Shown piece by piece: positions 1,472 through 14,020 of a stretch of DNA of 32,000 nt; position 1 is the first letter of the stretch; every line of letters begins with the position of its first letter. This DNA is from Acaryochloris marina S15 (GTDB lineage Bacteria; Cyanobacteriota; Cyanobacteriia; Thermosynechococcales; Thermosynechococcaceae). The translations under genes were made by a program, and so were the position numbers. The notes below the pieces were generated by a model. That model saw nothing but the letters and a program-made list of their open reading frames with translations, ran no database searches and was not told the DNA's origin. The DNA is taken from positions 540,001 through 572,000 of the forward strand of contig NZ_CP064923.1 of NCBI RefSeq assembly GCF_018336915.1, read 5' to 3'.

Positions 1472-1514
1472 TAGCCGTTTTAGAGGTGTTTGTCATGCTC
1501 GAATAAAGCTTGAA

Positions 1515-2300
1515 TTAATGTGTGAGTAGCCGTTGAGTAATTTCGATAAATCCTAACCCCTCCGCTGCTTGGGTTATCGCTTGGGGATGGTGGTCAATCT
1601 GTTCCAGATAGTGAGACAAATTGGCAACGCCGACTGACAGAGGAAAAACTTGAGGGTCAAAGAGATCTTGATCATTGGGGCTATCGCCAATCGTCAAGAT
1701 TTGGGCTAACTCATATTGCTCAGGCAAGTGATGCTCGAGTACGGTTAGTAGCCCTGCTTGCTTGTTCTGGCCTTGGGGTTTGATGTGGCACTGCACTGTA
1801 CTATAGGTAAAATCAAATCCTTCAGTGGCGCAGAGATTCGCCATCTGATCTAAATCGACCGGATCGAAATCAGGATTATCAAAGGTCCAATCTGTGATCC
1901 TGAAAGCGTTGTCAGCCGTAGTCCGTAGATGCGGGAAATGAGTTTGAAGCATACGAAAGGTATTGGCTAAGTGAGCCCGGTGATCTTTGAGGCCAGGAAT
2001 GTCTGAAAGTACTTTCCCGGGGGTATCGGGTTGGTGAAAGAAAAGGCCGCCATTTTCTGCGATCGCACCTTGTATCGGCAAATAATGGGCGAGTCCGCTG
2101 ACCCAACCCGCCGATCGACCCGTCACAATCACAACAGCAAACCCGCTATTTTGTAAGTCCCACAATGCTTGACCAAAGATAGCTGGGAATTTACCGTCTA
2201 CAGTTAGAGTGCCATCCATATCGGTTGCAATCAGTTTGATGGTATTGAGCTGCTGTGCAGGAAGATCTGCAAATGGTGTGATGGAGTGGCTCATGGACAA
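1515..2300 (-). CDS. HAD-superfamily hydrolase, subfamily IIB (Cof / sugar-phosphate phosphatase-like)
   Basis: HAD motif I IATDMDGTLT, motif II VIVTGRS, motif IV GDSPNDQDLF, with a cap domain between motifs II and III. Confidence 0.8.
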   Translation of the reverse strand: MSMSHSITPFADLPAQQLNTIKLIATDMDGTLTVDGKFPAIFGQALWDLQNSGFAVVIVTGRSAGWVSGLAHYLPIQGAIAENGGLFFHQPDTPGKVLSDIPGLKDHRAHLANTFRMLQTHFPHLRTTADNAFRITDWTFDNPDFDPVDLDQMANLCATEGFDFTYSTVQCHIKPQGQNKQAGLLTVLEHHLPEQYELAQILTIGDSPNDQDLFDPQVFPLSVGVANLSHYLEQIDHHPQAITQAAEGLGFIEITQRLLTH

Positions 2301-2332
2301 TTCGTGCAGGGCGGTCTTATTCTACAGTGCGA

Positions 2333-2833
2333 TTAGACCGCCTTATAAATGACGGCACCATCGGACTCGCGATTCCCAACAACCAATAGTTCGGCCAAAC
2401 ACAGCTCTTGGACTTTGGATTTGACCGTTTCAGGACTTGTTTCGGTCGCAATTACGCAATCACTCAGGGTGGCCCCCCTCTGATCTCGACAAATCTTTAG
2501 AATTTGCACATCCAGAGGTGGACTCGTTTGCCCATAAGTACTGACATCTCTCACAATAGTGGGTTGTGTCGTGGCATCAGCTGAACTATAGAGTAATCTC
2601 TGCTTCAGATTTTTATGGTCAACCATCTCTGGAATTAAAAAGAGATCGACCACTTGGCCAATGCCGAGAAATCCGAAGGTACAAAAGTAGAGAATGCCGC
2701 TAACGGGTTTGCCTAGGTAGAATCGGTGAATCCCACAGATGCCAAAGGTAGAGAAAAACCAAAGGAGATAGGCGGTACCATTATTAGCCATTGGGGTGTT
2801 ACGACCTTTGCTGTCTCGAACACTATTCTTCAA
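2333..2833 (-). CDS. TM2 domain-containing membrane protein with a soluble C-terminal domain
   Basis: YLLWFFSTFGICGIHRFYLGKPVSGILYFCTFGFLGIGQVVDLFLIP matches the TM2 two-helix signature (G-x-H-R-F-Y-L-G). The true start may be the internal MANNGTAY (ATG at 2791). Confidence 0.7.
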   Translation of the reverse strand: MKNSVRDSKGRNTPMANNGTAYLLWFFSTFGICGIHRFYLGKPVSGILYFCTFGFLGIGQVVDLFLIPEMVDHKNLKQRLLYSSADATTQPTIVRDVSTYGQTSPPLDVQILKICRDQRGATLSDCVIATETSPETVKSKVQELCLAELLVVGNRESDGAVIYKAV

Positions 2834-3042
2834 TTCTAGCTAATGAGGAATTGCAGCAGAATCGCAATCTTTACCTTTCTACAGAAAAGCAAGGGACTGG
2901 TCCCCCCTTCACAATCTCCAACGGAAGCGTAATAGATCCCTGGTCTAAGATTATTTATTCAAAACACGACGGAAATCTACCAGAAAACAGATCATTCATC
3001 TGCATAGGCTAGGGATCTATTATGCTTCCGTTGCTACTGAGG

Positions 3043-3678
3043 CTACAAAGTGCACTTGGATTTATTCTGACGGACAAGATGTGACCATTTTCTTTTGGCG
3101 AAGATACCAAGACCGATGGTTATAATGCTGCCCAAGAAAGTACTAGGCTCAGGAACAGTCACGAACTCAGGAGAACTAGAACCGTTAAACAATCCGCACA
3201 GTGAACCAGGAGAACCATCACAGACTCGTACGCCTCCGCGAAGTTGAATGTTGCTGAAGGCACCAGGACCCGTAACGTAACGCGGGCCAAATAAGCCGGT
3301 AGTGGGCCTTAAAGTACTAATTCCTTCCCTGAACCTAGTATTGCCATCGCCCAAGGGACCACCATCTAAGTCATAGACAAGACCAAATAAGTCTCCAAAT
3401 CCATAAGTTGTCGGTGGTGTTAACCGATTCCCAGAAAAAGTGACCCTGAAGTCCGAAATTTCACGGAAGTTTTGGGAGCCTCTAAAATACGCAACTTGAC
3501 CATCGCCATCAAGGTCATCGGCGATGAAAAAACCTTCAGTGTAAGCGCCTTCATCAAAACCATCTTGTCTGAAGTTATAGGTTAGGGAGGCTGCTGTTGC
3601 TGGGGATATAAAGCTCAGAACCAAGGTGCATGAGGCATATGCACAGGCTGCTATTGTCAAAAACTTTGAGTTCTTCAT
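3043..3678 (-). CDS. PEP-CTERM sorting-domain secreted protein
   Basis: N-terminal signal peptide MKNSKFLTIAACAYASCTLVLSFISPATA. C-terminal VPEPSTFLGSIITIGLGIFAKRK gives the PEP motif, a TM helix and a basic cluster (exosortase sorting signal). Confidence 0.8.
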   Translation of the reverse strand: MKNSKFLTIAACAYASCTLVLSFISPATAASLTYNFRQDGFDEGAYTEGFFIADDLDGDGQVAYFRGSQNFREISDFRVTFSGNRLTPPTTYGFGDLFGLVYDLDGGPLGDGNTRFREGISTLRPTTGLFGPRYVTGPGAFSNIQLRGGVRVCDGSPGSLCGLFNGSSSPEFVTVPEPSTFLGSIITIGLGIFAKRKWSHLVRQNKSKCTL

Positions 3679-4188
3679 GTTTAAATCTCAGATTCTCGAT
3701 CATTAAAGACTCAGGAGATCGAAAAGACTAGCAATATTATAGTTAATGCTCTATTTCTACTGTAGAGATTATTTCCTCGTATTTAGGATTAAAAGAACAT
3801 AGTTCGATATCTGATGGAGGTACTGCTCTCTTAAGAACTAATAAATCCATTAGGCTCCTTTCCAGTAGGATATGCTAGCTGTTCTCCTACAAAAACTCCT
3901 AGAAGTTTTTCTGGATTTAGGTTTGATATCCCTATCACTTTTTAAGAGAGCAGTGCTGGAAAGGTCATCACAGCTGATCCATGGATATTGTCATAGCCAC
4001 TTGACATAACTGTTGTCCTCCAAAACAGTATTGATGCAGCAGTTGGATGAAAGTTTCTGATTTTGTGCTGGGCATCCGTGAAACTTGAAATCTTGAAGCC
4101 TCTGCTACAAGAGTGAGAAGAATACTCAAACCAGGCTACTTCGCTCATGGGTTTGGGCAGTAAGTCTAGGAGTGTATGCAGAAGCCGT

Positions 4189-4539
4189 TTACTCTTCTAA
4201 GCGAGTGATCAAAACTTTTAGCTCTTCAGCTAATTCTTGGCTAGTAATCTTTTGCTCAGTTTCACTAGTATCATCCATAAACATATTGCCTTTGCCTGTC
4301 AATAGCCAATCGATAGATACCTGATAATAGGTATTGAGCAAAATTAGAAAATCAATATTGAGTAAATAATCACCACACTCACAGCCTGACCACTGTCTGA
4401 CCGAGATAGAAAGATTTTTGGCAATTTGAACTTGGGATAACCCCAGATGAGCACGTAGCTGCTTCATTCGTCTGCCAATTTTCTGGGCTGCAATATGAAT
4501 TATTAGCTGATCTTTTTTCCCGAGTTGCTTGCGAGGCAT
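4189..4539 (-). CDS. XRE-family helix-turn-helix transcriptional regulator
   Basis: LRAHLGLSQVQIAKNLSISVRQWSGCECG ... VSIDWLLTGKG is a typical Cro/CI-type HTH with the IDWLLTG tail. The surrounding DNA is AT-rich. Confidence 0.75.
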   Translation of the reverse strand: MPRKQLGKKDQLIIHIAAQKIGRRMKQLRAHLGLSQVQIAKNLSISVRQWSGCECGDYLLNIDFLILLNTYYQVSIDWLLTGKGNMFMDDTSETEQKITSQELAEELKVLITRLEE

Positions 4540-4598
4540 AGCAGAGTGGCAGATTAGTTTTTATGTTATTAGAGATATTGAAAAGGACTAAAATTATA

Positions 4599-4685
4599 GT
4601 CATCTAATCTAAAAGGCGATAGAAAAAAAAGGTAATTAGATGACAAAAGATTGTCTAAATATTTTTCAACAAACATATTTTAGAC
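4599..4685. promoter_or_regulatory. Two adjacent inverted repeats in the divergent XRE / ORF-5070 intergenic region; candidate operators
   Basis: IR-1 is GTCATCTAAT (4599-4608) / ATTAGATGAC (4635-4644), a perfect 10 bp with a 26-nt spacer. IR-2 is GTCTAAATAT (4653-4662) / ATATTTTAGAC (4675-4685), 10 bp with one extra base. Both sit 60-150 nt upstream of the XRE start codon. Confidence 0.4.
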
Positions 4686-5069
4686 GTAATCCTCTAACGA
4701 GTTCTATGTAGGAATACGGATTCTTTTGCAATCACAGGCACTCTAAATGGAGAAAGCGTCTCCGTGAAAACACTGAATTTTTCGGAAATGGTGCATGATT
4801 ATTGAGTCATATTGCCTACTGTAGGGGTGCCACTCCGTATATTCACGGATACAATAGAAAGAACATTTATCAAATGGCATAGGTGGTGATTGCACAGGAC
4901 GCGATCATCTATGACATAGAGAAGTCTTTAGCCCCTGTTTGGGAGAACACTCTAATCTTTAGGATTTAGCAAATCATTCGCTTAGCTTTTGCGAGCGTTT
5001 ATGCTATCTCAGGGCTAGAAAAAGACATACATTAAAGAAAACATTATCTAGTTGTTGTTAGACATAGCA

Positions 5070-5542: not shown

Positions 5543-5575
5543 GAAAGAGGACTGATAACCAATCCTCTCTCTTTT
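5543..5575 (+). terminator. Rho-independent terminator candidate
   Basis: Stem GAAAGAGGA (5543-5551) / TCCTCTCTC (5563-5571): 6 perfect bp plus 2 more beyond one mismatch, followed by TTTT (5572-5575). Confidence 0.45.
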
Positions 5576-5715
5576 GTGTCACTTACAAGTAACTAAGAAG
5601 CGTATATTAATTTCGAAGTGCGCTGTTGACGGATGTAATTTACCTCAGTCTTATTCCCTCATTTTATTTTTTGAACGAATGCTGCCTTAAGAGAGGCGAA
5701 AGAAAGGAGTGAAAC

Positions 5716-6819
5716 TTAGGATTTGGAGTCAGATTGGTAGTAAACTTTCTCTCCATGATCAGGAACGTATCGGCAATCTCTCAAGGCAATCCATAAACTC
5801 TTCCAAATGGGATCTGGAGACTTCTGATAGTACTCACCTAAGAGCGGCTTAATGGCTTTGGTTGCCGTCAGCAAATGATAGTGAGGCATGCCTAAGAAAA
5901 TATGGTGGGCGACATGAGTGCCAATATTGTGATGGATGGGATTGATAAACCCATAGTCATGGTCGATGGTAGAGAGTGCACCCTTGAGAAAATACCAATT
6001 GTCATTGGGGTACCAAGGTACACTCGGGACGGTATGGTGCAACAAAGTAACGACGTCTAGCCAAACAATGAAAACAATATAGGGAACGAGATAATACTTG
6101 ACTAGGAATAACCAGCCATTGGTGTAAGTGAGAACTGCTAAAAAAGCGATCATTGCTCCCCATAAGACCGTACTGGTGATGACATCCCATTTCTCGGAAG
6201 GCTTGAATAAGGGGCTACTAGGCAGGAAATGAGATCCCTTGCGTCCAGGTGACCGCTTGAATAGATAGATGGGATAGGCCAGTAGGGTCAAATAGTAACG
6301 GACAAATTTGACATCCTTCGGCATCTCTCGATATTGAGTTTCCGTGGGAGGGTACCAACTTTCATCCGTTTCGATATTGCCTGTATTGGCATGGTGGGTA
6401 CGGTGACTAATGCGCCAACCATGAAAAGGCACCAAAATTGGCGTATGGCTGAGATGTCCGATCAAATCGTTCAGCCGCCTGTGTTTGGAAAAAGAACGAT
6501 GACCACAGTCGTGTCCCACAACAAATAACGCCCAAAACATTGTGCCTTGAGCTAACCAAAAGATGGGCCAGAACCATAGGGCATTAATTTGATGGGCAAT
6601 GGCGTATAAACCAGCGATAATACCGATATCTAAAAAGAAATATGAAAGAGATCGCCAGGCTGAAGGCTCAAAGCAATGAGGGGGAATGGCTGCCTTTACC
6701 TCTTGAAGGGTAAAGGGTAATTCTCTAGACCTAGAGACGGCGGGGCCTTTGGTTTCAACACCAGTAGAGTTTTGCACGAAAAAATACTGCTTCCTTACGC
6801 TGTAGTGACCGAGTCTCAT
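5716..6819 (-). CDS. desB: Acyl-lipid omega-3 fatty acid desaturase (DesB type)
   Basis: Three His boxes: HDCGHRSF, WRISHRTHHANTGN and HVAHHIF. ELPFTLQEVKAAIPPHCFEPS and GALSTIDHDYGFINPIHHNIGTHVAHHIF closely resemble the cyanobacterial DesB / plant FAD3/7 pattern, not the Delta12 type. I prefer MRLGHY (ATG 6819) to the ORF-track start at 6855. Confidence 0.8.
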   Translation of the reverse strand: MRLGHYSVRKQYFFVQNSTGVETKGPAVSRSRELPFTLQEVKAAIPPHCFEPSAWRSLSYFFLDIGIIAGLYAIAHQINALWFWPIFWLAQGTMFWALFVVGHDCGHRSFSKHRRLNDLIGHLSHTPILVPFHGWRISHRTHHANTGNIETDESWYPPTETQYREMPKDVKFVRYYLTLLAYPIYLFKRSPGRKGSHFLPSSPLFKPSEKWDVITSTVLWGAMIAFLAVLTYTNGWLFLVKYYLVPYIVFIVWLDVVTLLHHTVPSVPWYPNDNWYFLKGALSTIDHDYGFINPIHHNIGTHVAHHIFLGMPHYHLLTATKAIKPLLGEYYQKSPDPIWKSLWIALRDCRYVPDHGEKVYYQSDSKS

Positions 6820-7101
6820 TCTATCTCTTAACAAGTCGTAATCAAAGTTAAGCAATGACTCCCATGAAAGTTTACAAATTGAAATAGTATTAACTTCAGA
6901 ACTGAATTTCCTTATATCTATCTGGGTTAACTCTTGGGGGGGTGATCGCGGTCAATCTATTAAAGGATTGAGACTACTAAGCTCTAGTGAGCTATATTTT
7001 TCTTGCTCTGCAGTATTGGACCCGCTGATTACATCAAGCTCCGCTGAACTAGCGGTTCCCGAACCAATCCTCTGACGTTACTTCAGAACATATCTTCTGC
7101 C

Positions 7102-8073
7102 ATGATTACTCATCAAAATCTTTGTAAGAAAAACCATCAGTTTAAGAACAACTGCTTAAAATTCTTGAGTGTGAGCAGTGTTCTTCTGGTCCTAATCAGT
7201 GGATGCAGCTCGGAAAACTCTAGTTCTAAATCTAAATCTCAGGCGCAATCAGGAGACCCGGCAGCCAGTACTCCAGAGCCTCTCAATTCAACGCCGACAA
7301 AATTAAAGTTAACGGTTGTATCTCCCGAGTCACTGCGCGTTAAGCAGGGAGATTTAATCGTTAAGGGGCAAATTTTGGTCGATCGGACCGCTGCCCGTCA
7401 GACCATTATGGCTCGCCGTCAAAAGGTGCAACAGGAAGTTGCGCTTTTAACGGCGACGGAACAGATTCCGACTGCCCCAACGAATACAACTGCGGCAGAA
7501 GCTCAGGTGCAGCAAGCCCGAGAACGGGTTCGTTTAGCGGATGCTGCAATGCAGGATTATCTGGCTAAATCTCCTTACACTGATCTTGCTCGTCAAACCC
7601 TGCCTCTGCCATCGGAGGAGAAACAGTTAGCTCAGTTGCAATTCGCTAAAACCTCTGCTCAAGCCCAGCTAGAACAGGCCATTGCCCAGCGTAAGTCTTT
7701 ACAATCTTCTCAACAAGCTCGGCAACAGGGGCAAGCTGTAGCGTCTAGTAAGAAGAATCAACTTCTCAATGAGTTGAAAACTATTGAGGCCCAATTACAG
7801 GCTTTTCAAGATATTCTGTCTCCCCATGATGCGATTGTGCAAAAGGTCGATTGGCAAAAGAAGGGAAAAAATGGGACGACGGTAGAACTAGCCCTTGCGG
7901 TCCATTCTTTGGCAGATCCTGTTCCATCTCTACCTAATGGGACCAATAATCCTTTGCTATCGGTTCCTAGCCCAGCGCCCGGACAGCCCTTTCCCAGCCT
8001 TCCTGCGCCGTTAGCGCCTGCTCCCCAACCCGCAGCCCCCGGGCAGGTCCCGACTGCTGCTCAGCAACCTTGA
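7102..8073 (+). CDS. Putative lipoprotein with a Gln/Ala-rich coiled coil and a Pro-rich tail
   Basis: Lipobox LISGC. LKLTVVSPESLRVKQGDLIVKGQILVD resembles the lipoyl-like hairpin of membrane-fusion (HlyD-type) proteins. A long Q/A-rich helical region is followed by a PAPxxP tail. Confidence 0.6.
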   Translation: MITHQNLCKKNHQFKNNCLKFLSVSSVLLVLISGCSSENSSSKSKSQAQSGDPAASTPEPLNSTPTKLKLTVVSPESLRVKQGDLIVKGQILVDRTAARQTIMARRQKVQQEVALLTATEQIPTAPTNTTAAEAQVQQARERVRLADAAMQDYLAKSPYTDLARQTLPLPSEEKQLAQLQFAKTSAQAQLEQAIAQRKSLQSSQQARQQGQAVASSKKNQLLNELKTIEAQLQAFQDILSPHDAIVQKVDWQKKGKNGTTVELALAVHSLADPVPSLPNGTNNPLLSVPSPAPGQPFPSLPAPLAPAPQPAAPGQVPTAAQQP

Positions 8074-8271
8074 ATGATCAGTTTGAGTCGAAAGTGACTG
8101 GAGATGTTGCCTGAGGATCATGGCGGTTCTCAATTCAGTGTGTTAGGTTTGGCCACTGAGTCAATGGCGTGCTGTGAGGTAGCGGTTCAGGTTCTGAATA
8201 TCTGACTGGTACTTTGAAGCTGAAAATTGCGGATAAGTGTACCGCCAAGCACACAAGGTTGATTCACCATT

Positions 8272-8340
8272 CCTCGATTAGCTCAGCGGGAGAGCACCGG
8301 GCTTATCCGGGGGGCGTAGGTTCAAATCCTACATCGAGCG
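8272..8340 (+). ncRNA. tRNA-like element 1: cloverleaf with an aberrant anticodon arm
   Basis: Acceptor CCTCGAT / ATCGAGC: pairs 2-7 are Watson-Crick and 1:72 is C.C. U8-A9 is present. D-arm GCTC-AGCGGGA-GAGC. T-arm GTAGG-TTCAAAT-CCTAC. The anticodon arm is only CCGG-GCTTAT-CCGG (4 bp, 6-nt loop, no U33-NNN-purine pattern). There is no encoded CCA. Confidence 0.6.
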
Positions 8341-8343
8341 AAC

Positions 8344-8419
8344 CGAAAGCTAGCTCAGTTGGTAGAGCATCAGACTCATAATCTGACTGTCACAGGTTCA
8401 AATCCTGTACTTTCCACCA
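8344..8419 (+). tRNA. tRNA-like element 2: CAU anticodon (Met/Ile2 type) with a defective acceptor stem and encoded CCA
   Basis: D-arm TA-GCTC-AGTTGGTA-GAGC. Anticodon arm TCAGA-CTCATAA-TCTGA. Variable loop CTGTC. T-arm ACAGG-TTCAAAT-CCTGT. 3' end ACTTTCC-A-CCA. The 5' acceptor strand CGAAAGC gives a C.C mismatch at 1:72 and C.A at 7:66. It starts only 3 nt after element 1. Confidence 0.6.
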
Positions 8420-8423
8420 CCCC

Positions 8424-8509
8424 GCCCTGGGTATGGGCACCTCGTTTAGGACGAGTTATGTCATCGGTACGGGAGCAATCCCAAGGTGGTTCAAATCCAC
8501 TTGATAAGC
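8424..8509 (+). ncRNA. tRNA-like element 3: T-arm-containing multi-hairpin RNA with no acceptor stem
   Basis: Hairpins: GCCC-TGGGTAT-GGGC (8424-8438, D-arm-like); CTCG-TTTAGGA-CGAG (8441-8455, a loop like tRNA-Leu UAG); GGGA-GCAA-TCCC (8471-8482, GNRA tetraloop); T-arm GGTGG-TTCAAAT-CCACT (8485-8501). The tail TGATAAGC follows. No complementary 5' acceptor strand exists. Confidence 0.45.
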
Positions 8510-8619
8510 ATCCGGTTGTTGGTGTCTCGCGGTGAGTGTCACTCGGTGGCCGTCACTGCAACAGCCAAAGGCCAGCGCAATCGCATTGGATGATCGGTTT
8601 GAGTAGGTTCCTTTGAAGG

Positions 8620-8650
8620 GCAACCGCTGGGAGGAAATTCCAGGGGTTGC
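8620..8650 (+). other. Stem-loop in the SPFH leader
   Basis: GCAACCGCTGG (8620-8630) / CCAGGGGTTGC (8640-8650): 11 bp with one G.G mismatch and a 9-nt loop GAGGAAATT. No U-tract follows, so it is not a terminator. Confidence 0.4.
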
Positions 8651-8792
8651 TGCTGCGAACGGCCTATCGGTTGAAGACAGAACCCAGGCTTAACCTTCGG
8701 GTGGGGCTGCGGTTCACCTTCAACTTAATCCAGCTGATCATGGGCGATTGCCCGCACTGTAACTGTGGAGACCAACAGCCTTGGGTGCTTTT

Positions 8793-8810
8793 AGATGTGG
8801 CCCCACATCT
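8793..8810 (+). promoter_or_regulatory. Perfect 18-nt palindrome AGATGTGGCCCCACATCT just upstream of the SPFH RBS
   Basis: Read directly from the sequence. It ends 25 nt before ATG 8836 and 12 nt before the GAAGGA Shine-Dalgarno-like element. It could be an operator or a translational-control hairpin. Confidence 0.4.
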
Positions 8811-8835
8811 ATGCGAGAAGAAGAAGGAAATAACA

Positions 8836-10368
8836 ATGTTTAAGTCGTTTTATATCAAGCCCCATGAACGGGGTATGTTGTTTTATCGCAGCAAGTTTGA
8901 GATGTTTTTGCTGCCGGGTACCCATCGTCGCATGGGGTGGCATTGGCAGGTGAAGACTTTTGATTTAAATCAGCCCCAAGTCCAGATTGACCATTTGGAG
9001 ATGTTGCTGCAAACCCATGCCCACAGTATGGATGAGTATTTTACGGTGGTGCGCACGGCTTATAACCAGGCTGCCTTAGTCCGGTTAGGACAACAATGGT
9101 GCACGATTGGCCCGAATCAACTGCAAGCGTTTTGGCGGGGGTTTATTGAGGTAGAAGTGCACCTATTTAACCTAGATGAGGGGCTTGAACTGCCGTCTCA
9201 GTTTGTCCAGCGATTGCGAGACGTATCGCTACCAGATTTGAATCGGGTCTCAATTCCTGAATCCCAGTTGGGGATGCTCTATGAGCAGGATAATTTTGTT
9301 CGACCTCTGGCTCCTGGAGAGTATGGGTTTTGGACCTGCGATCGCAAAATCAGTATCACCCGCTATAATCGCACCCGCCCTGAACCCGATTTCTCTTTTG
9401 AGGAAGTGCTGATTGAGCGGCATCCCGAGTTTGTCGCTAGTCACTGTGAATCCGTGCAGTTGGGCAATCAGGAAGTTGCCATTGTCCGGTACCAAGGCAA
9501 AGCAATTACGATTTTGCCCCCCTGTAGTCGCAAGCTCTTTTGGAAAGGGGTTGCGGTTGAGGTGATTGATATCAGTGAAGATGCCAAGCTATCGCCAGTG
9601 CTCGTGGCCGAGCTGGTCGCGGGGTTACCGGAAGCCCTAGAGCTGGCCTATGATGTCTTACATATTTTGGAAGTTCCGGCCCAGCATTTAGGGCTGCTGT
9701 ATGAAGCCAGTGCGTTTGTAGAGACGCTGACTCCGGGTTGGCATGTCTGGTGGACCTTTGGTCGGGCTTGGAAAACTGAAGTGGTGGATTTGCGTTTGCA
9801 AACCCTAGAGGTCTCCGGTCAGGAAATCTTGTCTAAGGATAAGGTGTCTCTTCGCCTTAACCTGACGGCGGGATATCGGATCACGGATCCCGTGCAGGCC
9901 AAAACTGGCTTGAGCAATATTGAGGATTATCTCTATAAAGAGCTTCAATTTGCCCTCCGCTCAGCAGTGGGCACCAAGTCTCTGGATCAACTCCTAGAAG
10001 ATAAGGGGGCGATTGATGCTAGCGTCTCTGACCATATTCGCGAGAAAACGGAGCAGTATGGGGTTGTCATTGCTTCCGTGGGTGTCAAAGATATCATTCT
10101 GCCCGGAGAAATGAAGGCCATTCTCTGTCAGGTGGTTGAAGCAGAGAAATCCGCCCAGGCCAACGTTATTCGTCGTCGGGAAGAGACGGCTGCCACGCGC
10201 AGTATGCTCAACACTGCCAAGGTGATGGAGAGTAATCCCGTGGCCCTGCGCTTGAAAGAGCTGGAGGTGTTAGAACGGATCGCGGACAAAATTGAGCATA
10301 TTCATGTCAATGGCGGTCTCGATAGTATCTTGACCGAGATGATTCGCATCAATGGGGCTAGAGAGTAG
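8836..10368 (+). CDS. SPFH/Band-7 (stomatin/slipin-like) protein; soluble, with three tandem N-terminal-type modules
   Basis: The C-terminal half carries a canonical SPFH core: LRLNLTAGYRITDP, VGVKDIILPGEMKAI, AEKSAQANVIRRREETAATR, NPVALRLKELEVL. I chose ATG 8836 (GAAGGA 8-13 nt upstream) over the ORF-track TTG at 8647, because that extension overlaps the structured leader. I see no hydrophobic TM segment. Confidence 0.8.
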   Translation: MFKSFYIKPHERGMLFYRSKFEMFLLPGTHRRMGWHWQVKTFDLNQPQVQIDHLEMLLQTHAHSMDEYFTVVRTAYNQAALVRLGQQWCTIGPNQLQAFWRGFIEVEVHLFNLDEGLELPSQFVQRLRDVSLPDLNRVSIPESQLGMLYEQDNFVRPLAPGEYGFWTCDRKISITRYNRTRPEPDFSFEEVLIERHPEFVASHCESVQLGNQEVAIVRYQGKAITILPPCSRKLFWKGVAVEVIDISEDAKLSPVLVAELVAGLPEALELAYDVLHILEVPAQHLGLLYEASAFVETLTPGWHVWWTFGRAWKTEVVDLRLQTLEVSGQEILSKDKVSLRLNLTAGYRITDPVQAKTGLSNIEDYLYKELQFALRSAVGTKSLDQLLEDKGAIDASVSDHIREKTEQYGVVIASVGVKDIILPGEMKAILCQVVEAEKSAQANVIRRREETAATRSMLNTAKVMESNPVALRLKELEVLERIADKIEHIHVNGGLDSILTEMIRINGARE

Positions 10369-10410
10369 GGGAATAGGAGCCGATTCACCATCAGCTCCTA
10401 AAGGCAAGAT

Positions 10411-10854
10411 ATGGAAGCAGTCATCTTTGTGGGCATTCAGGCCACAGGCAAATCGACGTTTTATCACCATCGGTTTGGTCGGACCCATGTGCGGATCAAT
10501 CTGGATATGTTGAAAACTCGACATCGTGAGCAACAGTTTTTGTCCACCTGCCTAGATACCCGTCAACGCTTTGTGGTGGACAACACCAATCCCACTCCTG
10601 CTGATCGCCAGCGGTATATCCAGCCTGCCCAAGCACAGGGCTTCTCGATTACAGGGTATTACTTTGAATCGAAGTTGGCAGATGCATTGATACGAAACTG
10701 CGATCGCACTCCCGACCAACAAATTTCAGATAAAGGGATCCGAGGAACAGCCTCTCGCCTCATCTTGCCTGCTTATGACGAGGGGTTTGACCAACTTTTT
10801 TATGTTCGTATTCTCCCCCATCAACACTTTGCAGTTGAGGACTGGCAACCATGA
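10411..10854 (+). CDS. P-loop polynucleotide 5'-kinase family protein (PNK/PNKP kinase-domain-like)
   Basis: Walker A GIQATGKST. RINLDMLKT aligns with the catalytic-Asp region of PNK kinases. FVVDNTNPTPADRQRYIQPAQAQGF and DEGFDQLFYV follow the mammalian PNKP / T4 Pnk kinase-domain pattern (V-I-D-N-T-N-P ... R-x-R-Y-I ... E-G-F). There is no phosphatase domain. Confidence 0.75.
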   Translation: MEAVIFVGIQATGKSTFYHHRFGRTHVRINLDMLKTRHREQQFLSTCLDTRQRFVVDNTNPTPADRQRYIQPAQAQGFSITGYYFESKLADALIRNCDRTPDQQISDKGIRGTASRLILPAYDEGFDQLFYVRILPHQHFAVEDWQP

Positions 10855-11612
10855 AATTTACTGAACTCGATCAAAAACTGAGAGTCTTTGAAACCGCTCA
10901 TGATTTATGCGTTTTGCCTGGGTTGTACATGGTGGCTCGTTTGGATGGACGGAATTTTACCCGCTTAACCAAAGAAACCTTGGACTTAGAAGCCCCCTTT
11001 GATTCAGGCTTTCGGGATGCCATGGTGGCAACGGTTCAGCATTTGATGAACTGCGGATTTCGAGTGATGTATGGCTATACCCAAAGCGACGAAATCTCTT
11101 TACTGCTGCACCCAGAAGAGCAGACCTTTGCTCGTAAGCTGCGCAAGCTCAACTCTTTGCTGGCAGCGGAAGCCAGTGCTAAATTGTCATTGATCTTGGG
11201 CAGTATGGCTGTCTTTGACGGTCGCATCTCCCAACTGCCCACGGTTGATTTAGTCGTTGACTATTTTCGATGGCGACAGGAAGATGCCCACCGCAATGCC
11301 CTCAATGCCCATTGCTACTGGATGTTGCGTAAATCGGGTGACTCCGCGAGCATGGCAACTCAGAAGTTAGAGGGATTATCTGTAGGCGATAAGAATGAAT
11401 TGCTGTTTCAACTGGGGCAAATCAACTTTAATGACTTACCCCACTGGCAAAAGCGGGGAGTGGGTTGCGCTTGGCAGTCGTATCCAACGGCAGGCATCAA
11501 CCCTATGTCAGGGGAAGTCTCTCAAGGGACCCGCACGAAAATCAGCATTGAGGTCAACTTGCCCATGAAAGAAGACTACAGGGAATTTGTCCTCAATTTA
11601 ATGACTCGCTGA
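10851..11612 (+). CDS. Thg1-like protein (TLP; tRNA-His guanylyltransferase superfamily, 3'-5' nucleotidyltransferase)
   Basis: VARLDGRNFTRL, YGYTQSDEISLLL (metal-binding D-E), FDGRISQLP, YFRWRQEDAHRNALN and GDKNELLF all match conserved Thg1-family blocks. The eukaryotic HINNLYN block is replaced by HRNALNA, which fits the TLP subgroup. The start overlaps the kinase stop (ATGA). Confidence 0.85.
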   Translation: MKFTELDQKLRVFETAHDLCVLPGLYMVARLDGRNFTRLTKETLDLEAPFDSGFRDAMVATVQHLMNCGFRVMYGYTQSDEISLLLHPEEQTFARKLRKLNSLLAAEASAKLSLILGSMAVFDGRISQLPTVDLVVDYFRWRQEDAHRNALNAHCYWMLRKSGDSASMATQKLEGLSVGDKNELLFQLGQINFNDLPHWQKRGVGCAWQSYPTAGINPMSGEVSQGTRTKISIEVNLPMKEDYREFVLNLMTR

Positions 11613-11616
11613 ACCT

Positions 11617-12174
11617 CTATTTCTGGGATAAAACTCGCAGCCAGGGCTTTTGGGCTCGGCGGCGCTCTAAACTCATTTCAAAGCCATAGGCTTTAAATTC
11701 TTGTTCACTGTAATATTCCCGAAACCGAGCCAAGGGAACGCGAGACCGACCATCTAGAGAGTGAACAATAGACGTAGGAACACGAACATCTCCTCCCAAA
11801 TGGACAAAGGCTTCTTCTACCGTCATCCAGGGGCGCTTAGAATCGCTCACTTCCGTGGGAATCGCTTGCTCTAAACTGCTCAGCTTATCGGCCAATCCCT
11901 TGACCATATTGCCGGGCTTCATATTTGAATTTTGCTTTGATTTCTGCAGTTTCCCTATCCACACTTGGATCAGAGAGCTGAAATACTGGAAAATTCGCTT
12001 GAGAATTCGCCCACAGACTTGAAGGATGCTGCCAGCCCCGGCTTGACTGGACGGGCTGCCCTGAGAGGCAATGGCGGCACTGGACCAGCCGCAATTGGCA
12101 CAGACTTGACGCCCGGATTTGAGAGGGGGTCCTAAGCGATTGGAGCAACGGGGACAGGTTTCCAGCATAGTCAA
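11617..12174 (-). CDS. Hypothetical protein with an N-terminal zinc ribbon
   Basis: CPRCSNRLGPPLKSGRQVCANCGW (CxxC...CxxC). Convergent with the TLP gene; the stops are 4 nt apart. Confidence 0.55.
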   Translation of the reverse strand: MTMLETCPRCSNRLGPPLKSGRQVCANCGWSSAAIASQGSPSSQAGAGSILQVCGRILKRIFQYFSSLIQVWIGKLQKSKQNSNMKPGNMVKGLADKLSSLEQAIPTEVSDSKRPWMTVEEAFVHLGGDVRVPTSIVHSLDGRSRVPLARFREYYSEQEFKAYGFEMSLERRRAQKPWLRVLSQK

Positions 12175-12213
12175 AGTCTCCTAAGACAGGGATGCGCGAA
12201 CGAAGATAACACG

Positions 12214-12669
12214 TTAAGTCAAGCTCTCTAGTGCAGATGTTGAACCGAGATTATGGAGAATTTCTAACGGTAAGCCATCCGCATCCGCGGCAAAGGCCAC
12301 ATGATATGTATGCTTGCCAATCGTTTGTGGCATGGGATAAAGCAATACTTTTAAGGTGATTGAGACTGCTTTGAGCCGTTCTCGCCATTGTTCAAGCCAG
12401 GTCGATAAGGTTTGGTCTGCCGACAGGTCATCTGTGACATCTATCGATAAATGATAATAGCCTACGTAACCCTCGTCGCCAAAGGCATCCGCTGGCGGTT
12501 TAGGATCTGGGATTTGAATTAGTTCTAGTCTGCCGATAGGACCCTCCAACCAACATCCCAGAGTATACCCAGTTGTAAAGCGTTCGATAACGTCAAAGTC
12601 TAGGGTCTGGTAGAACGAGATTGCCCGGTGGATATCCCCGGTCCGAATCGACAGATGATGCCCCTTCAT
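12214..12669 (-). CDS. VOC (glyoxalase/bleomycin-resistance/dioxygenase) family protein
   Basis: MKGHHLSIRTGDIHRAISFYQTLDFDV is a typical VOC beta-alpha-beta-beta-beta N-terminus. The YHLSIDV and YHVAFAADADGLPLEI blocks are also present. Confidence 0.65.
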   Translation of the reverse strand: MKGHHLSIRTGDIHRAISFYQTLDFDVIERFTTGYTLGCWLEGPIGRLELIQIPDPKPPADAFGDEGYVGYYHLSIDVTDDLSADQTLSTWLEQWRERLKAVSITLKVLLYPMPQTIGKHTYHVAFAADADGLPLEILHNLGSTSALESLT

Positions 12670-12741
12670 GGCGATACCCCGATATGCTGACCATCAGATA
12701 TACCACAGCCTCCTCGTCGTTGAGCCATAGATTCAGAAGGC

Positions 12742-13248
12742 TTAATCAAATAGGCGGAAATGAGGAGAATTACTGGGAATTCCAGGTTCCTTATCGAGAT
12801 CGAAATTAATCACTTGCCAGCGAGGATCATCCTCAGAGTCAGGGCTGAATTCTACGGGTAGCCCATATAAGCGTGGACGCCCTGACTGGGGTTTGTCTGA
12901 CCAGGGAGAATGTTCTAAATAAGTGTTGATCAAGATCTGATAGCGTTGGGCAATAATCACTTTGGTCGCGCGATACCCTTCGGTATAGAGGCGATCTAGC
13001 GCTTCATGAATTTCGAAGCGGATGCCATCAGGATGGGTATGTTGGCGGTACCATTGCCCATCCCATAATCGCCAATGACGTCCAGATTGGAGGTGGACTA
13101 AATCTTCAGTCTTGGGATCAGCTTCAAATGCCCCGTGACGTTGGCAAAGATAGGTATCCGTTAAGGTCAATGCGGTCATCATTTGTCGGCAATGGGGACA
13201 GAGTGTCTCAGGCCCAAAAATCGGATAGTGCATGCTGACATGTGTCAT
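12742..13248 (-). CDS. Conserved hypothetical protein with a putative zinc-binding CxxC...C..H N-terminus
   Basis: ETLCPHCRQMMTALTLTDTYLCQRHGAFEA. Codon usage looks normal. The start may be the internal MHYPIFG. Confidence 0.55.
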   Translation of the reverse strand: MTHVSMHYPIFGPETLCPHCRQMMTALTLTDTYLCQRHGAFEADPKTEDLVHLQSGRHWRLWDGQWYRQHTHPDGIRFEIHEALDRLYTEGYRATKVIIAQRYQILINTYLEHSPWSDKPQSGRPRLYGLPVEFSPDSEDDPRWQVINFDLDKEPGIPSNSPHFRLFD

Positions 13249-13385
13249 GAAGTCAGAGAGAGCCGAAGAACTCTGGTTGCCGCTAAGGTGGCTTCATTAT
13301 AACCGTGAATCGTTTAGCGTGGCTGTTCTGAATGGTCTGGAGACCGTCTCTTTTCAGGGTAGGATCGAGACGGTGTTTTAACCCT

Positions 13386-13931
13386 ATGACCTTGGATGTA
13401 TCCAGTCCCCAATATTGGCCACCCCCGGATCTTTCCTTGGCGGCGTTTGTGGCAGATAATGCCACGGTGATCGGCAATATTCACCTTCATCGAGAGGCCA
13501 GCATTTGGTATGGTGCGGTGCTGCGGGGGGATGTCGAGCGCATTGAAATTGGCGAATATACCAACATTCAGGATGGCGCCATTCTTCATGGTGATCCGGG
13601 ACAGCCGACGATTTTAGAAGATTATGTGACCGTGGGGCATCGAGCCGTGATTCACTCAGCGCATATTGAGCGAGGCACATTGATTGGTATTGGGGCCATT
13701 ATTCTCAATGGAGTACACATTGGCACTGGCAGCATTATTGGGGCTGGGGCAGTGGTGTCTAAGTCGGTTCCCCCTCGTTCCCTATGGGTGGGAGTGCCTG
13801 CAAAGCCTTTGCGGGAGATGAGTGAAGCGGAATCCGAGGATTTGATGGATCATGCTCGCCACTATCAAAAACTGGCTTTAGTCCATGCCAATCGAGGGAC
13901 TGATTTGGGTTTCAAAACGATTAAAAGCTAA
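13386..13931 (+). CDS. Gamma-class carbonic anhydrase-like / left-handed beta-helix (hexapeptide repeat) protein
   Basis: ASIWYGAVLRGDVERIEIGEYTNIQDGAILHGD...VTVGHRAVIHSAHIERGTLIGIGAIILNGVHIGTGSIIGAGAVV matches the gamma-CA/YrdA pattern with conserved His residues. I prefer ATG 13386 (MTLDVSSPQYW) to the track start at 13332. Confidence 0.8.
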   Translation: MTLDVSSPQYWPPPDLSLAAFVADNATVIGNIHLHREASIWYGAVLRGDVERIEIGEYTNIQDGAILHGDPGQPTILEDYVTVGHRAVIHSAHIERGTLIGIGAIILNGVHIGTGSIIGAGAVVSKSVPPRSLWVGVPAKPLREMSEAESEDLMDHARHYQKLALVHANRGTDLGFKTIKS

Positions 13932-14020
13932 GTCTAAGGGATTTTGATTAGAAAAATCTGACTACTTGTAGGACAATGGGTAAAAAGTGCTTTTAAAATA
14001 ATTCTGAGAGGAGATTGAGC

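Follow-up and report, generated by a model that had tools for sequence, protein, structure and literature searches.

An SPFH protein with a tRNA-like RNA and a PNK-type kinase-Thg1-like pair in one locus of Acaryochloris marina

The locus and its two modules

We analysed a stretch of 32,000 nucleotides from the cyanobacterium Acaryochloris marina S15 (NCBI RefSeq assembly GCF_018336915.1, contig NZ_CP064923.1, positions 540,001 to 572,000 of the forward strand), here called the window, with positions counted from its first letter. The locus in question carries, on one strand, two tRNA-like elements (tl1 and tl2) embedded in a larger conserved RNA, a gene for an SPFH/Band-7 protein, and genes for a PNK-family kinase and a Thg1-like protein (TLP). 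Our results indicate with high confidence that it joins two modules, each conserved independently of the other: the RNA with its SPFH gene (module A, 8183-10368) and the kinase-TLP pair (module B, 10411-11612). The genes, each an open reading frame (ORF), and the elements between and behind them are as follows.

8836-10368, forward strand: SPFH/Band-7 ("slipin family") gene, ORF of 510 aa
10376-10398, forward strand: intercistronic hairpin GGAGCCGAU-UCACC-AUCAGCUCC, no U-tract, read from the sequence
10411-10854, forward strand: PNK-family P-loop kinase gene, ORF of 147 aa
10851-11612, forward strand: TLP gene, ORF of 253 aa
10368-11635, forward strand: the segment of the kinase-TLP cassette, which blastn shows to be missing from L015, a syntenic relative
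11617-12174, reverse strand: convergent ORF of 185 aa

An earlier note, made from the letters alone, had described three same-strand genes at these coordinates, with 42 nt between SPFH and kinase, a 4-nt overlap (ATGA) of the kinase stop with the TLP start, and a convergent gene closing the unit. ORF calls bear out every one of these points, and domain matches confirm the assignment of the three proteins to the SPFH, PNK-type kinase and Thg1-like families. The proposal that the RNA and the three genes form one conserved unit is not supported.

Our sample of SPFH relatives comprised Gloeothece PCC 7424, Chroococcidiopsis PCC 7203, Altericista and Anabaena PCC 7120, together with 80 metagenomic loci. 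Same-strand tRNA-like elements were counted up to 1.2 kb ahead of the SPFH gene, wherever 700 nt or more of that sequence was available; 63 of 70 relatives had one, among them 27 of 29 with the long (~508-aa) cyanobacterial form of the protein and 36 of 41 with the short (376-aa) form of other phyla. A kinase or TLP stands beside SPFH only in the window and in L001-L003, all of them A. marina-like, and none was found in the 81 other SPFH-relative loci outside the A. marina group; every such relative has the SPFH gene and RNA without kinase or TLP. The converse holds for module B. The same small AAA_33 kinase overlaps the start of a TLP gene in all five other kinase-TLP loci, which come from three phyla (Nostoc piscinale, Pantanalinema, Lusitaniella, a Caldilineaceae metagenome-assembled genome, and Limibacter), and neither an SPFH gene nor a tRNA-like element lies near the pair in any of the five.

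The boundary between the modules is visible in a close relative. By blastn, window 8120-10367 corresponds to 3278-5529 of L015 and window 11636-13998 to 5554-7926, so that ~24 nt in L015 replaces window 10368-11635; the L015 SPFH protein is 86% identical and the flanks are syntenic. Because L015 lacks exactly this segment and all outgroups are without the cassette, parsimony suggests that module B was most likely inserted behind module A in the A. marina lineage. With A found elsewhere without B, B without A, and L015 without the cassette, the SPFH-kinase-TLP architecture is best read from the compared sequences as a lineage-specific juxtaposition.

Several details of the gene calls bear on what follows. 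The N-termini of 63 homologues support 8836 as the SPFH start; a longer, TTG-initiated ORF of 573 aa (8647-10368) reads into the SPFH gene through the conserved RNA, and we reject its start as an artefact for that reason and because 8836 fits the homologues. The Altericista orthologue (L011 5001-6722, P0041) is annotated with the same over-long start, and database homologues of 640-675 aa with N-terminal extensions also exist (e.g. P0006, P0013). The 42-nt gap between SPFH and kinase gave neither a promoter-like nor a terminator-like call. The hairpin in that gap has a perfect counterpart in L003 (GAGCCGAU/AUCGGCUC). HIP1 sites are present at 9338 in the SPFH gene and at 10700 in the kinase gene, and the window as a whole has 13 against 0.21 expected; of the long residence that the earlier note read from them, they show residence in cyanobacteria but not at this locus. 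The convergent ORF encodes an N-terminal CxxC...CxxC zinc-ribbon-like motif, has no Pfam or NCBIfam match, and is syntenic in L001, L003 and L015, with or without kinase-TLP.

The RNA and the SPFH protein of module A

Comparison of ten aligned cyanobacterial loci points to a conserved, structured non-coding RNA of ~575 nt spanning 8183-8757, in which tl1 and tl2 are included. Its conserved blocks run from a 5' hairpin at 8188-8204 through GCCCGCAC (8750-8757), and its parts, with one further hairpin downstream, can be listed as follows.

8183-8213, forward strand: 5' conserved block of the RNA with hairpin 8188-8204 (CAGGU-UCUGAAU-AUCUG), from the alignment of ten cyanobacterial loci
8237-8246, forward strand: single-stranded conserved block GUGUACCGCC just 5' of tl1, in all aligned cyanobacterial leaders
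8272-8340, forward strand: tl1, a tRNA-like cloverleaf, predicted not to decode, whose anticodon loop is shortened to 4 nt (CUUA) and which lacks CCA; Rfam tRNA, 52.7 bits; ARAGORN "tRNA-???"
8344-8419, forward strand: tl2, a tRNA-like cloverleaf with CAU as "anticodon" and an encoded A73-CCA; Rfam tRNA, 61.1 bits (8344-8416); ARAGORN
8420-8509, forward strand: hairpin cluster with H3 (8424-8438), H4 (8441-8455), a GNRA hairpin (8471-8482) and a T-arm-like hairpin (8486-8502)
8570-8757, forward strand: 3' three-way-junction domain of ~190 nt, by RNAalifold on ten loci
8793-8810, forward strand: palindromic hairpin AGAUGUGG-CC-CCACAUCU between the 3' domain and the purine-rich ribosome-binding region, read from the sequence

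The tRNA-like elements, which lie 417-495 nt upstream of the SPFH gene, covary. In tl1-tl2 dimers from 27 loci of cyanobacteria and other phyla, RNAalifold recovers a double cloverleaf of 41 pairs, 34 of which show compensatory changes, and the acceptor, D, anticodon and T stems of tl1 all covary; the conserved, covarying RNA upstream of SPFH homologues that the earlier note had said should be looked for is thus present. The same note had counted three tRNA-like elements. ARAGORN and Rfam agree on the two at 8272-8340 and 8344-8419, but 8420-8509 is no cloverleaf: neither ARAGORN nor Rfam (E values up to 10) reports a tRNA there, a closing helix of the acceptor type is missing, and the minimum free energy is no better than that of shuffled sequences (z=0.10).

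Neither element satisfies the usual description of a canonical tRNA (a 7-nt loop, U33, a purine at 37 and a conserved anticodon). In the window the tl1 acceptor has six of seven pairs, with C1/C72 unpaired where most relatives pair 1:72, and its anticodon loop, 4 nt long here, has 5-8 nt elsewhere when counted by alignment columns. The tl2 loop of the window, CUCAUAA, looks normal; mismatches are C1/C72, unpaired, and C7-A66. RNAalifold supports only 6 bp in the tl2 acceptor, 18 of 27 loci have a mismatch at 1:72, and A73-CCA is encoded in many copies. The "anticodon" of tl2 at orthologous loci may be CAU, CAC, UAU, UGU, GUU, GAU, GUG, CCU or others, and U33 or R37 is missing from some loops, as in UGUAUCC of L007. 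Because this triplet changes between orthologues, the tl1 loop ranges from 4 to 8 nt and tl2 is unpaired at 1:72 in 18 of 27 loci, tl1 and tl2 are predicted not to decode. The tl1 loop (8295-8310, compared with L001, L002, L003 and L015) is also a local hypervariable spot between conserved flanking stems: its sequence and length differ in each of the five Acaryochloris-group relatives, which are ~88% identical over the region.

Outside the cloverleaves, the stem at 8188-8204 covaries, with CAGGU/AUCUG in the window against GGGU/ACCC in L007, L009 and PCC 7120, as do H3 (GCCC/GGGC against GUCC/GGAC) and H4 (CUCGU/ACGAG against CUUGU/ACAAG). The T-arm-like hairpin (GGUGGUUCAAAUCCAC) is present in some lineages only. 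Between tl2 and the ATG, RNAalifold on the ten loci gives 79 pairs, 46 with compensatory changes. Here the 3' domain is closed by a long-range helix, GGCCAGCGCAAUCG/GCGAUUGCCCGCAC (8570-8583 with 8744-8757), that encloses two long hairpins, one of them with a UUCG loop. What the earlier note called a 326-nt leader does lie upstream of the ATG but is not a plain leader, since it contains this three-way domain. The signature blocks of the 3' part (CCAGCGC, UUGAGUA, AACGGNNUAU, CUUCGGG and GCCCGCA) occur only upstream of the long cyanobacterial SPFH form, Anabaena PCC 7120 included. The short form has no 3' blocks, and its protein also has one N-terminal repeat fewer. Searching 8100-8900 against Rfam 15 at E values up to 10 gave nothing meaningful beyond the two tRNA matches; a YrlA assignment was rejected because its score of 17 bits, where the gathering threshold is 69, is at chance level.

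Variants of the RNA occur in individual genomes. In L005, an uncultured cyanobacterium, the whole unit is tandemly duplicated (1290-1900 and 2060-2690) before one SPFH gene, with a long variable arm in the second tl2. The SPFH orthologue of Acaryochloris thomasi (L010 4821-6527, 73% identity) has 180 nt of upstream sequence with no tRNA-like element and no RNA blocks, and the RNA of this genome appears to be lost or encoded elsewhere. At four cyanobacterial loci (L009 3170-4213, L021, L022 and L023; also L057) the gene immediately preceding the tRNA-like RNA, in the same orientation, encodes a retron type XIII-like reverse transcriptase (PADLOC RT_XIII, 3.4e-148).

The SPFH protein itself matches Pfam Band_7 (6.2e-31, aa 279-450). 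It is 92% identical to its counterpart in A. marina MBIC11017 (NC_009925, 3.82 Mb), and identity across cyanobacteria is ~65%. In an AF2 model (pLDDT 83.9), two beta/alpha repeats (aa 1-130 and 135-265) precede the SPFH domain (aa 275-421) and a long C-terminal helix. Beta strands begin at residue 2 and no N-terminal helix is predicted, so the model, which lacks an N-terminal membrane helix, is consistent with an anchor-less, soluble protein as the earlier note had proposed. The best Foldseek match in the PDB is stomatin (7.6e-15), over the C-terminal half. Foldseek also gives alignments of ~590 columns to the major vault protein (MVP; 2.7e-14) with TM-scores of 0.2-0.3, and sequence profiles find stomatin-type SPFH only and not MVP. 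The modelled resemblance is suggestive of a vault-like build but does not establish it.

Both modules in other genomes

The pairing of SPFH/Band-7 proteins with a tRNA-like non-coding RNA, which the earlier note cited as a prediction of Burroughs and Aravind (2016), is a real one: the passage citing it in bioRxiv 10.1101/312249 attributes a Band-7/"b7a-tRNA"/RtcB repair prediction to their paper in Nucleic Acids Research. Around the short form of SPFH, tblastn finds RtcB in 12 loci, HNH in 15 and RlaP in 6. In 23 of 54 loci it lies within, or closes, a same-strand array of 6 to 21 tRNA genes, and the odd tRNA-like elements are the last one or two members of the array before the SPFH gene. These neighbourhoods match the b7a-tRNA/RtcB prediction as well as the reported surroundings of cyanobacterial L-arrays, which include HNH and rtcB (PMC8421152). 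Two further genes recur near the short form. One, placed between RtcB and either the tRNA array or the SPFH gene (L043 3133-4158, L060 2244-3302, L071 and L074), encodes a conserved ~350-aa protein that matches nothing in Pfam; the other, a convergent 473-aa TIR-TPR protein, lies downstream of SPFH in L039, L048 and L053, all from soil metagenome.

A related island is widespread in Escherichia coli, where SPFH, RlaP and a zeta-family kinase occur together in 1425 of 5426 complete genomes (26%). It lies between yjbD and lysC (example L101, strain WAT, NZ_CP012380.1 4472053-4478612, at 1500-4916) and encodes a slipin-family SPFH protein of 375 aa that is 44% identical to the window protein, an RlaP nucleotidyltransferase and a convergent zeta-toxin-family P-loop kinase. 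The 530-nt gap upstream contains the T-arm-like GGGUUCGAUUCCC and no tRNA by ARAGORN or Rfam. BLAST detects no similarity between the window kinase and the E. coli zeta-family kinase, and the parallel is therefore one of syntax and not of orthology. Among viral contigs there was a single match, an enterobacterial SPFH-RlaP pair (L099, IMG/VR UViG_2667528155_000005, 172-2090) whose RlaP is 95% identical to that of E. coli and which is possibly host DNA within a prophage call. These neighbourhoods show that different RNA-end repair enzymes occupy the slot beside SPFH in different lineages, namely RtcB ligase, RlaP or a zeta-type kinase; in the window, tblastn finds no RtcB, RlaP or HNH anywhere in the 32 kb.

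The orthologue in Anabaena PCC 7120 connects module A to published regulation. The SPFH orthologue there (P0448, BA000019.2 861842-863368) is Alr0740, and because an OmdA/YdeI gene precedes it the pair is alr0739-alr0740. In a trcR mutant alr0739 is de-repressed 71-fold and alr0740 42-fold, together with rtcB (77-fold), the HNH gene all8564 and the trn L-array; TrcR binds the alr0739-alr0740 promoter fragment, and both genes respond to chloramphenicol and erythromycin, i.e. to translation inhibitors (PMC10272220, PMC8421152, PMC9938897). The same conserved RNA lies upstream of alr0739 and ends just before two 9-nt GTGTAGTAT repeats. Such operator repeats also lie between RNA and ORF in L007, L009 and L018-L021, and in other cyanobacteria TrcR-type TGTAKTAY repeats take the position of the 8793-8810 hairpin. 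In L018 and L020, which are metagenomic, no YdeI gene was found to separate RNA from SPFH, and the homologue clusters looked up contained no PCC 7120 member; the orthology with alr0740 was established from the PCC 7120 locus. Searches with the operator patterns published for Anabaena (TGTWNWWNWNNWGTANYNWA and a 21-nt variant) yielded nothing meaningful in the window and no match in the loci; what the orthologous promoters carry are contiguous 9-nt repeats. Because operator repeats part RNA from ORF in Anabaena and in six other loci, the RNA is best regarded as a separate partner and not a cis leader. PMC8421152 and PMC10272220 do not mention the RNA and do not link the slipin gene to tRNA-like elements.

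Both proteins of module B have recognisable relatives. The kinase matches Pfam AAA_33 (1e-9), its best NCBIfam model is TIGR01663, the kinase part of PNK-3'Pase (8.5e-14), and its best PDB match is the kinase domain of mammalian PNKP (4e-8), to which it aligns with GxxxxGKS, the Asp of INLDML, VVDNTNP and RxRY; it is a predicted PNK-type 5'-OH kinase. The TLP matches Thg1 (PF04446, 3.3e-29) and Thg1C (PF14413, 3.1e-17), has the catalytic LDG and SDE motifs, and has its best PDB match in the Methanosarcina acetivorans TLP (5axk, 3e-25), with human Thg1 (5e-21) and the Bacillus thuringiensis TLP (4kgk, 2e-20) not far behind. Its segment aligned to the Thg1 HINNLYN region reads HRNALNA, and it is 65-72% identical to TLPs of cyanobacteria, Chloroflexota and Bacteroidota. 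The catalytic motifs of both proteins are intact. According to PMC3061083, bacterial TLPs repair 5'-truncated tRNA in vitro, and PMC3061083 and PMC4820378 have TLPs acting on acceptor stems with recessed 5' ends; the activity to be expected here, by family, is templated 3'-5' repair of 5'-truncated tRNA. The bacterial PNK-Thg1 gene pair was described by Anantharaman, Iyer and Aravind in 2010 (Biology Direct; PMC2904730), who had already published the logic, put forward again in the earlier note, that the kinase supplies the 5'-phosphate that the TLP needs. A published TLP review mentions no kinase or operon context.

The surroundings of the pair differ from genome to genome. In N. piscinale CENA21 (L012 3151-5798) it follows directly on hisS, for histidyl-tRNA synthetase, on the same strand, which hints at a tRNA-His G-1 role for cyanobacterial TLPs. 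In Pantanalinema (L097 2035-5631) a ParE-like gene precedes it and a gene for an R2K_3 ATP-grasp protein follows, and in the Caldilineaceae locus (L013) a metallophosphatase follows the TLP.

Function, alternatives and known systems

We lean towards reading the locus as a lineage-specific fusion of two conserved modules, each of which had earlier been predicted to act in RNA repair. That the two also cooperate is a further step, to which we give roughly even odds. Cooperation is suggested by adjacency, by the repair nature of both modules and by the other repair enzymes that take the same slot: module B shares the strand of SPFH and begins 42 nt after it, the gap having no promoter or terminator call, and repair enzymes stand beside SPFH elsewhere. 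The kinase-TLP cassette is probably read through from the module A transcript, and the overlap predicts translational coupling of kinase and TLP. In a working model, an oligomer of the SPFH protein with the RNA would form a ribonucleoprotein scaffold or chamber taking part in the response to damaged tRNA and impaired translation; the kinase would convert the 5'-OH ends left by ribonuclease toxins into 5'-phosphates; and the TLP would then activate the 5' end and refill the missing 5' nucleotides, templated by the 3' acceptor strand.

A number of observations weigh against this reading and its cooperative extension. The juxtaposition of A and B is confined to one narrow lineage, the window and L001-L003, and both modules are present on different contigs in Spirulina SIO3F2, P01_G01_bin.54, Cyanosarcina and Lusitaniella. 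The hairpin at 10376-10398 could attenuate read-through from SPFH into the kinase gene. The unpaired 1:72 of tl2 is identical with or without an adjacent TLP, and there is therefore no sign that the RNA has co-adapted to the TLP. Finally, TGTAKTAY-type repeats are absent upstream of SPFH in the window, L001-L003 and L015, and the stress regulation known from Anabaena may therefore not transfer to Acaryochloris.

The best-surviving alternative, which we consider possible although doubtful, is coincidence: the cassette landed or stayed at a permissive site, the modules work independently, and the kinase and TLP serve general or tRNA-His 5'-end upkeep. The independence of A and B everywhere else, the clean indel relative to L015 and the intercistronic hairpin are all as this explanation would have them, and the N. 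piscinale pair after hisS points to a tRNA-His-related role that needs no SPFH. It accounts less well for the shared strand, the 42-nt gap and a cassette with no detected promoter of its own, or for the fact that both modules are independently tied to RNA repair; moreover, RtcB and RlaP beside SPFH in other bacteria form the pattern expected of module displacement and not of chance.

It is also conceivable, though we think it unlikely, that the locus is a conflict device in which the tRNA mimics act as decoys or sensors for tRNA nucleases of phages or toxins, and kinase and TLP restore the host tRNAs. The hypervariable anticodon loop of tl1 among close relatives would suit such a role, as would the links of some relatives to TIR-TPR proteins, HNH and retron type XIII-like reverse transcriptases, and the residence of the short form in horizontally spread tRNA arrays that have been proposed as sponges or anti-defence elements (PMC8421152, PMC12803027). 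On the other hand, no PADLOC defence model matches SPFH, kinase or TLP, the long form (~65% identity) looks vertically conserved at ordinary chromosomal sites, and the 7-nt loop resembling a target that one would expect of a decoy for anticodon nucleases is lacking in tl1.

A role of the tRNA-like elements as substrates, with kinase and TLP maturing or repairing the 5' end of tl2 (or tl1) for loading into an SPFH particle, seems distinctly improbable to us. The conserved 6-bp acceptor of tl2, its unpaired 1:72 in 18 of 27 loci and its encoded CCA are features that invite this idea, given that TLPs work on recessed 5' ends of acceptor stems, as PMC3061083 and PMC4820378 report. Yet identical tl2 features occur in many genomes without an adjacent TLP, no tRNA-like RNA lies near kinase-TLP pairs elsewhere, and templated fill-in opposite C72 would add G where the gene encodes C1, so repair is not foreseen in the gene sequence. 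Least probable by a wide distance is a riboswitch or attenuator acting in cis on SPFH transcription or translation, for although the RNA lies immediately upstream on the same strand, with no separate promoter recognisable before the ORF in Acaryochloris and the 8793-8810 hairpin ahead of the ribosome-binding region, alr0739 and a TrcR-bound promoter come between RNA and SPFH in Anabaena PCC 7120, operator repeats do so in L007, L009 and L018-L021, L005 carries two tandem copies of the whole RNA unit, and the tRNA-like elements end tRNA arrays in other phyla.

The fusion of two repair modules that we favour admits a bolder form, which we offer as speculation and hold to be rather unlikely: a bacterial vault-like ribonucleoprotein in which an anchor-less, MVP-like SPFH protein and a tRNA-mimic RNA (~575 nt in cyanobacteria) would serve under translational stress as a tRNA-repair chamber or scaffold with interchangeable enzyme cartridges, these being RtcB/RlaP in many phyla, RlaP with a zeta-type kinase in E. 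coli, and PNK-kinase with TLP in Acaryochloris. If true, the locus would be the first physiological context for bacterial 3'-5' polymerases.

Both modules are predictions already known, from 2010 and 2016, and the locus therefore represents no new kind of system. To the extent that this could be checked, what is new is the combination of A and B, the extended structured RNA, the suggested MVP-like build, the correlation of the long protein form with the extra RNA domain, the recognition of alr0740 and its upstream RNA as a regulated orthologue, and the widespread E. coli island. Two questions meet here: the in vivo role of bacterial TLPs, asked about since 2010, and the purpose of the SPFH/tRNA-like RNA pairing predicted in 2016. 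The second is now testable in tractable organisms, with alr0740 in Anabaena PCC 7120 and with the island in E. coli, and the cyanobacterial RNA partner turns out to be a large covarying structured RNA absent from Rfam. Should the Acaryochloris combination be functional, it would link 5'-end fill-in repair to an SPFH-RNA particle.

Among known systems, module B is close to the PNK-Thg1 pair of PMC2904730 in that a PNK-family kinase gene stands immediately beside a Thg1-family gene; the partners there are MACRO-domain and RNA-ligase proteins, with no SPFH or tRNA-like RNA ("band" has 0 occurrences in the paper). With the characterised TLPs of B. thuringiensis, Myxococcus xanthus and M. acetivorans (PMC3061083, PMC4820378), the TLP of the window shares family, domain pair and motifs. 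The TrcR translational-stress regulon of PCC 7120 resembles module A through the orthology of Alr0740 with the window SPFH protein, the shared conserved RNA upstream of alr0739, and the short-form relatives of other phyla in L-type tRNA arrays with HNH and RtcB, whereas the window is without operator repeats, YdeI gene or tRNA array. The vault particle, composed of MVP and vault RNAs, offers a suggestive likeness to the modelled N-terminal beta-rich repeats, SPFH "shoulder" and long helix of the window protein, which, in a parallel to vault and Ro60/Rsr-Y RNA (YrlA) ribonucleoproteins, would pair with small structured tRNA-related non-coding RNA, YrlA being also a tRNA mimic. Unlike MVP, the protein has two repeats only, and its SPFH domain is of stomatin type by sequence. 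The closest counterpart is the predicted Band-7/b7a-tRNA module, with which, from gene content, we identify module A: both set an SPFH/Band-7 protein beside a tRNA-like non-coding RNA, and the window's relatives are linked to RtcB and RlaP. The window differs in carrying a PNK-kinase-TLP pair where RtcB or RlaP sits elsewhere, and in an RNA built as tandem cloverleaves within a conserved RNA of ~575 nt that has an extra domain of 190 nt.

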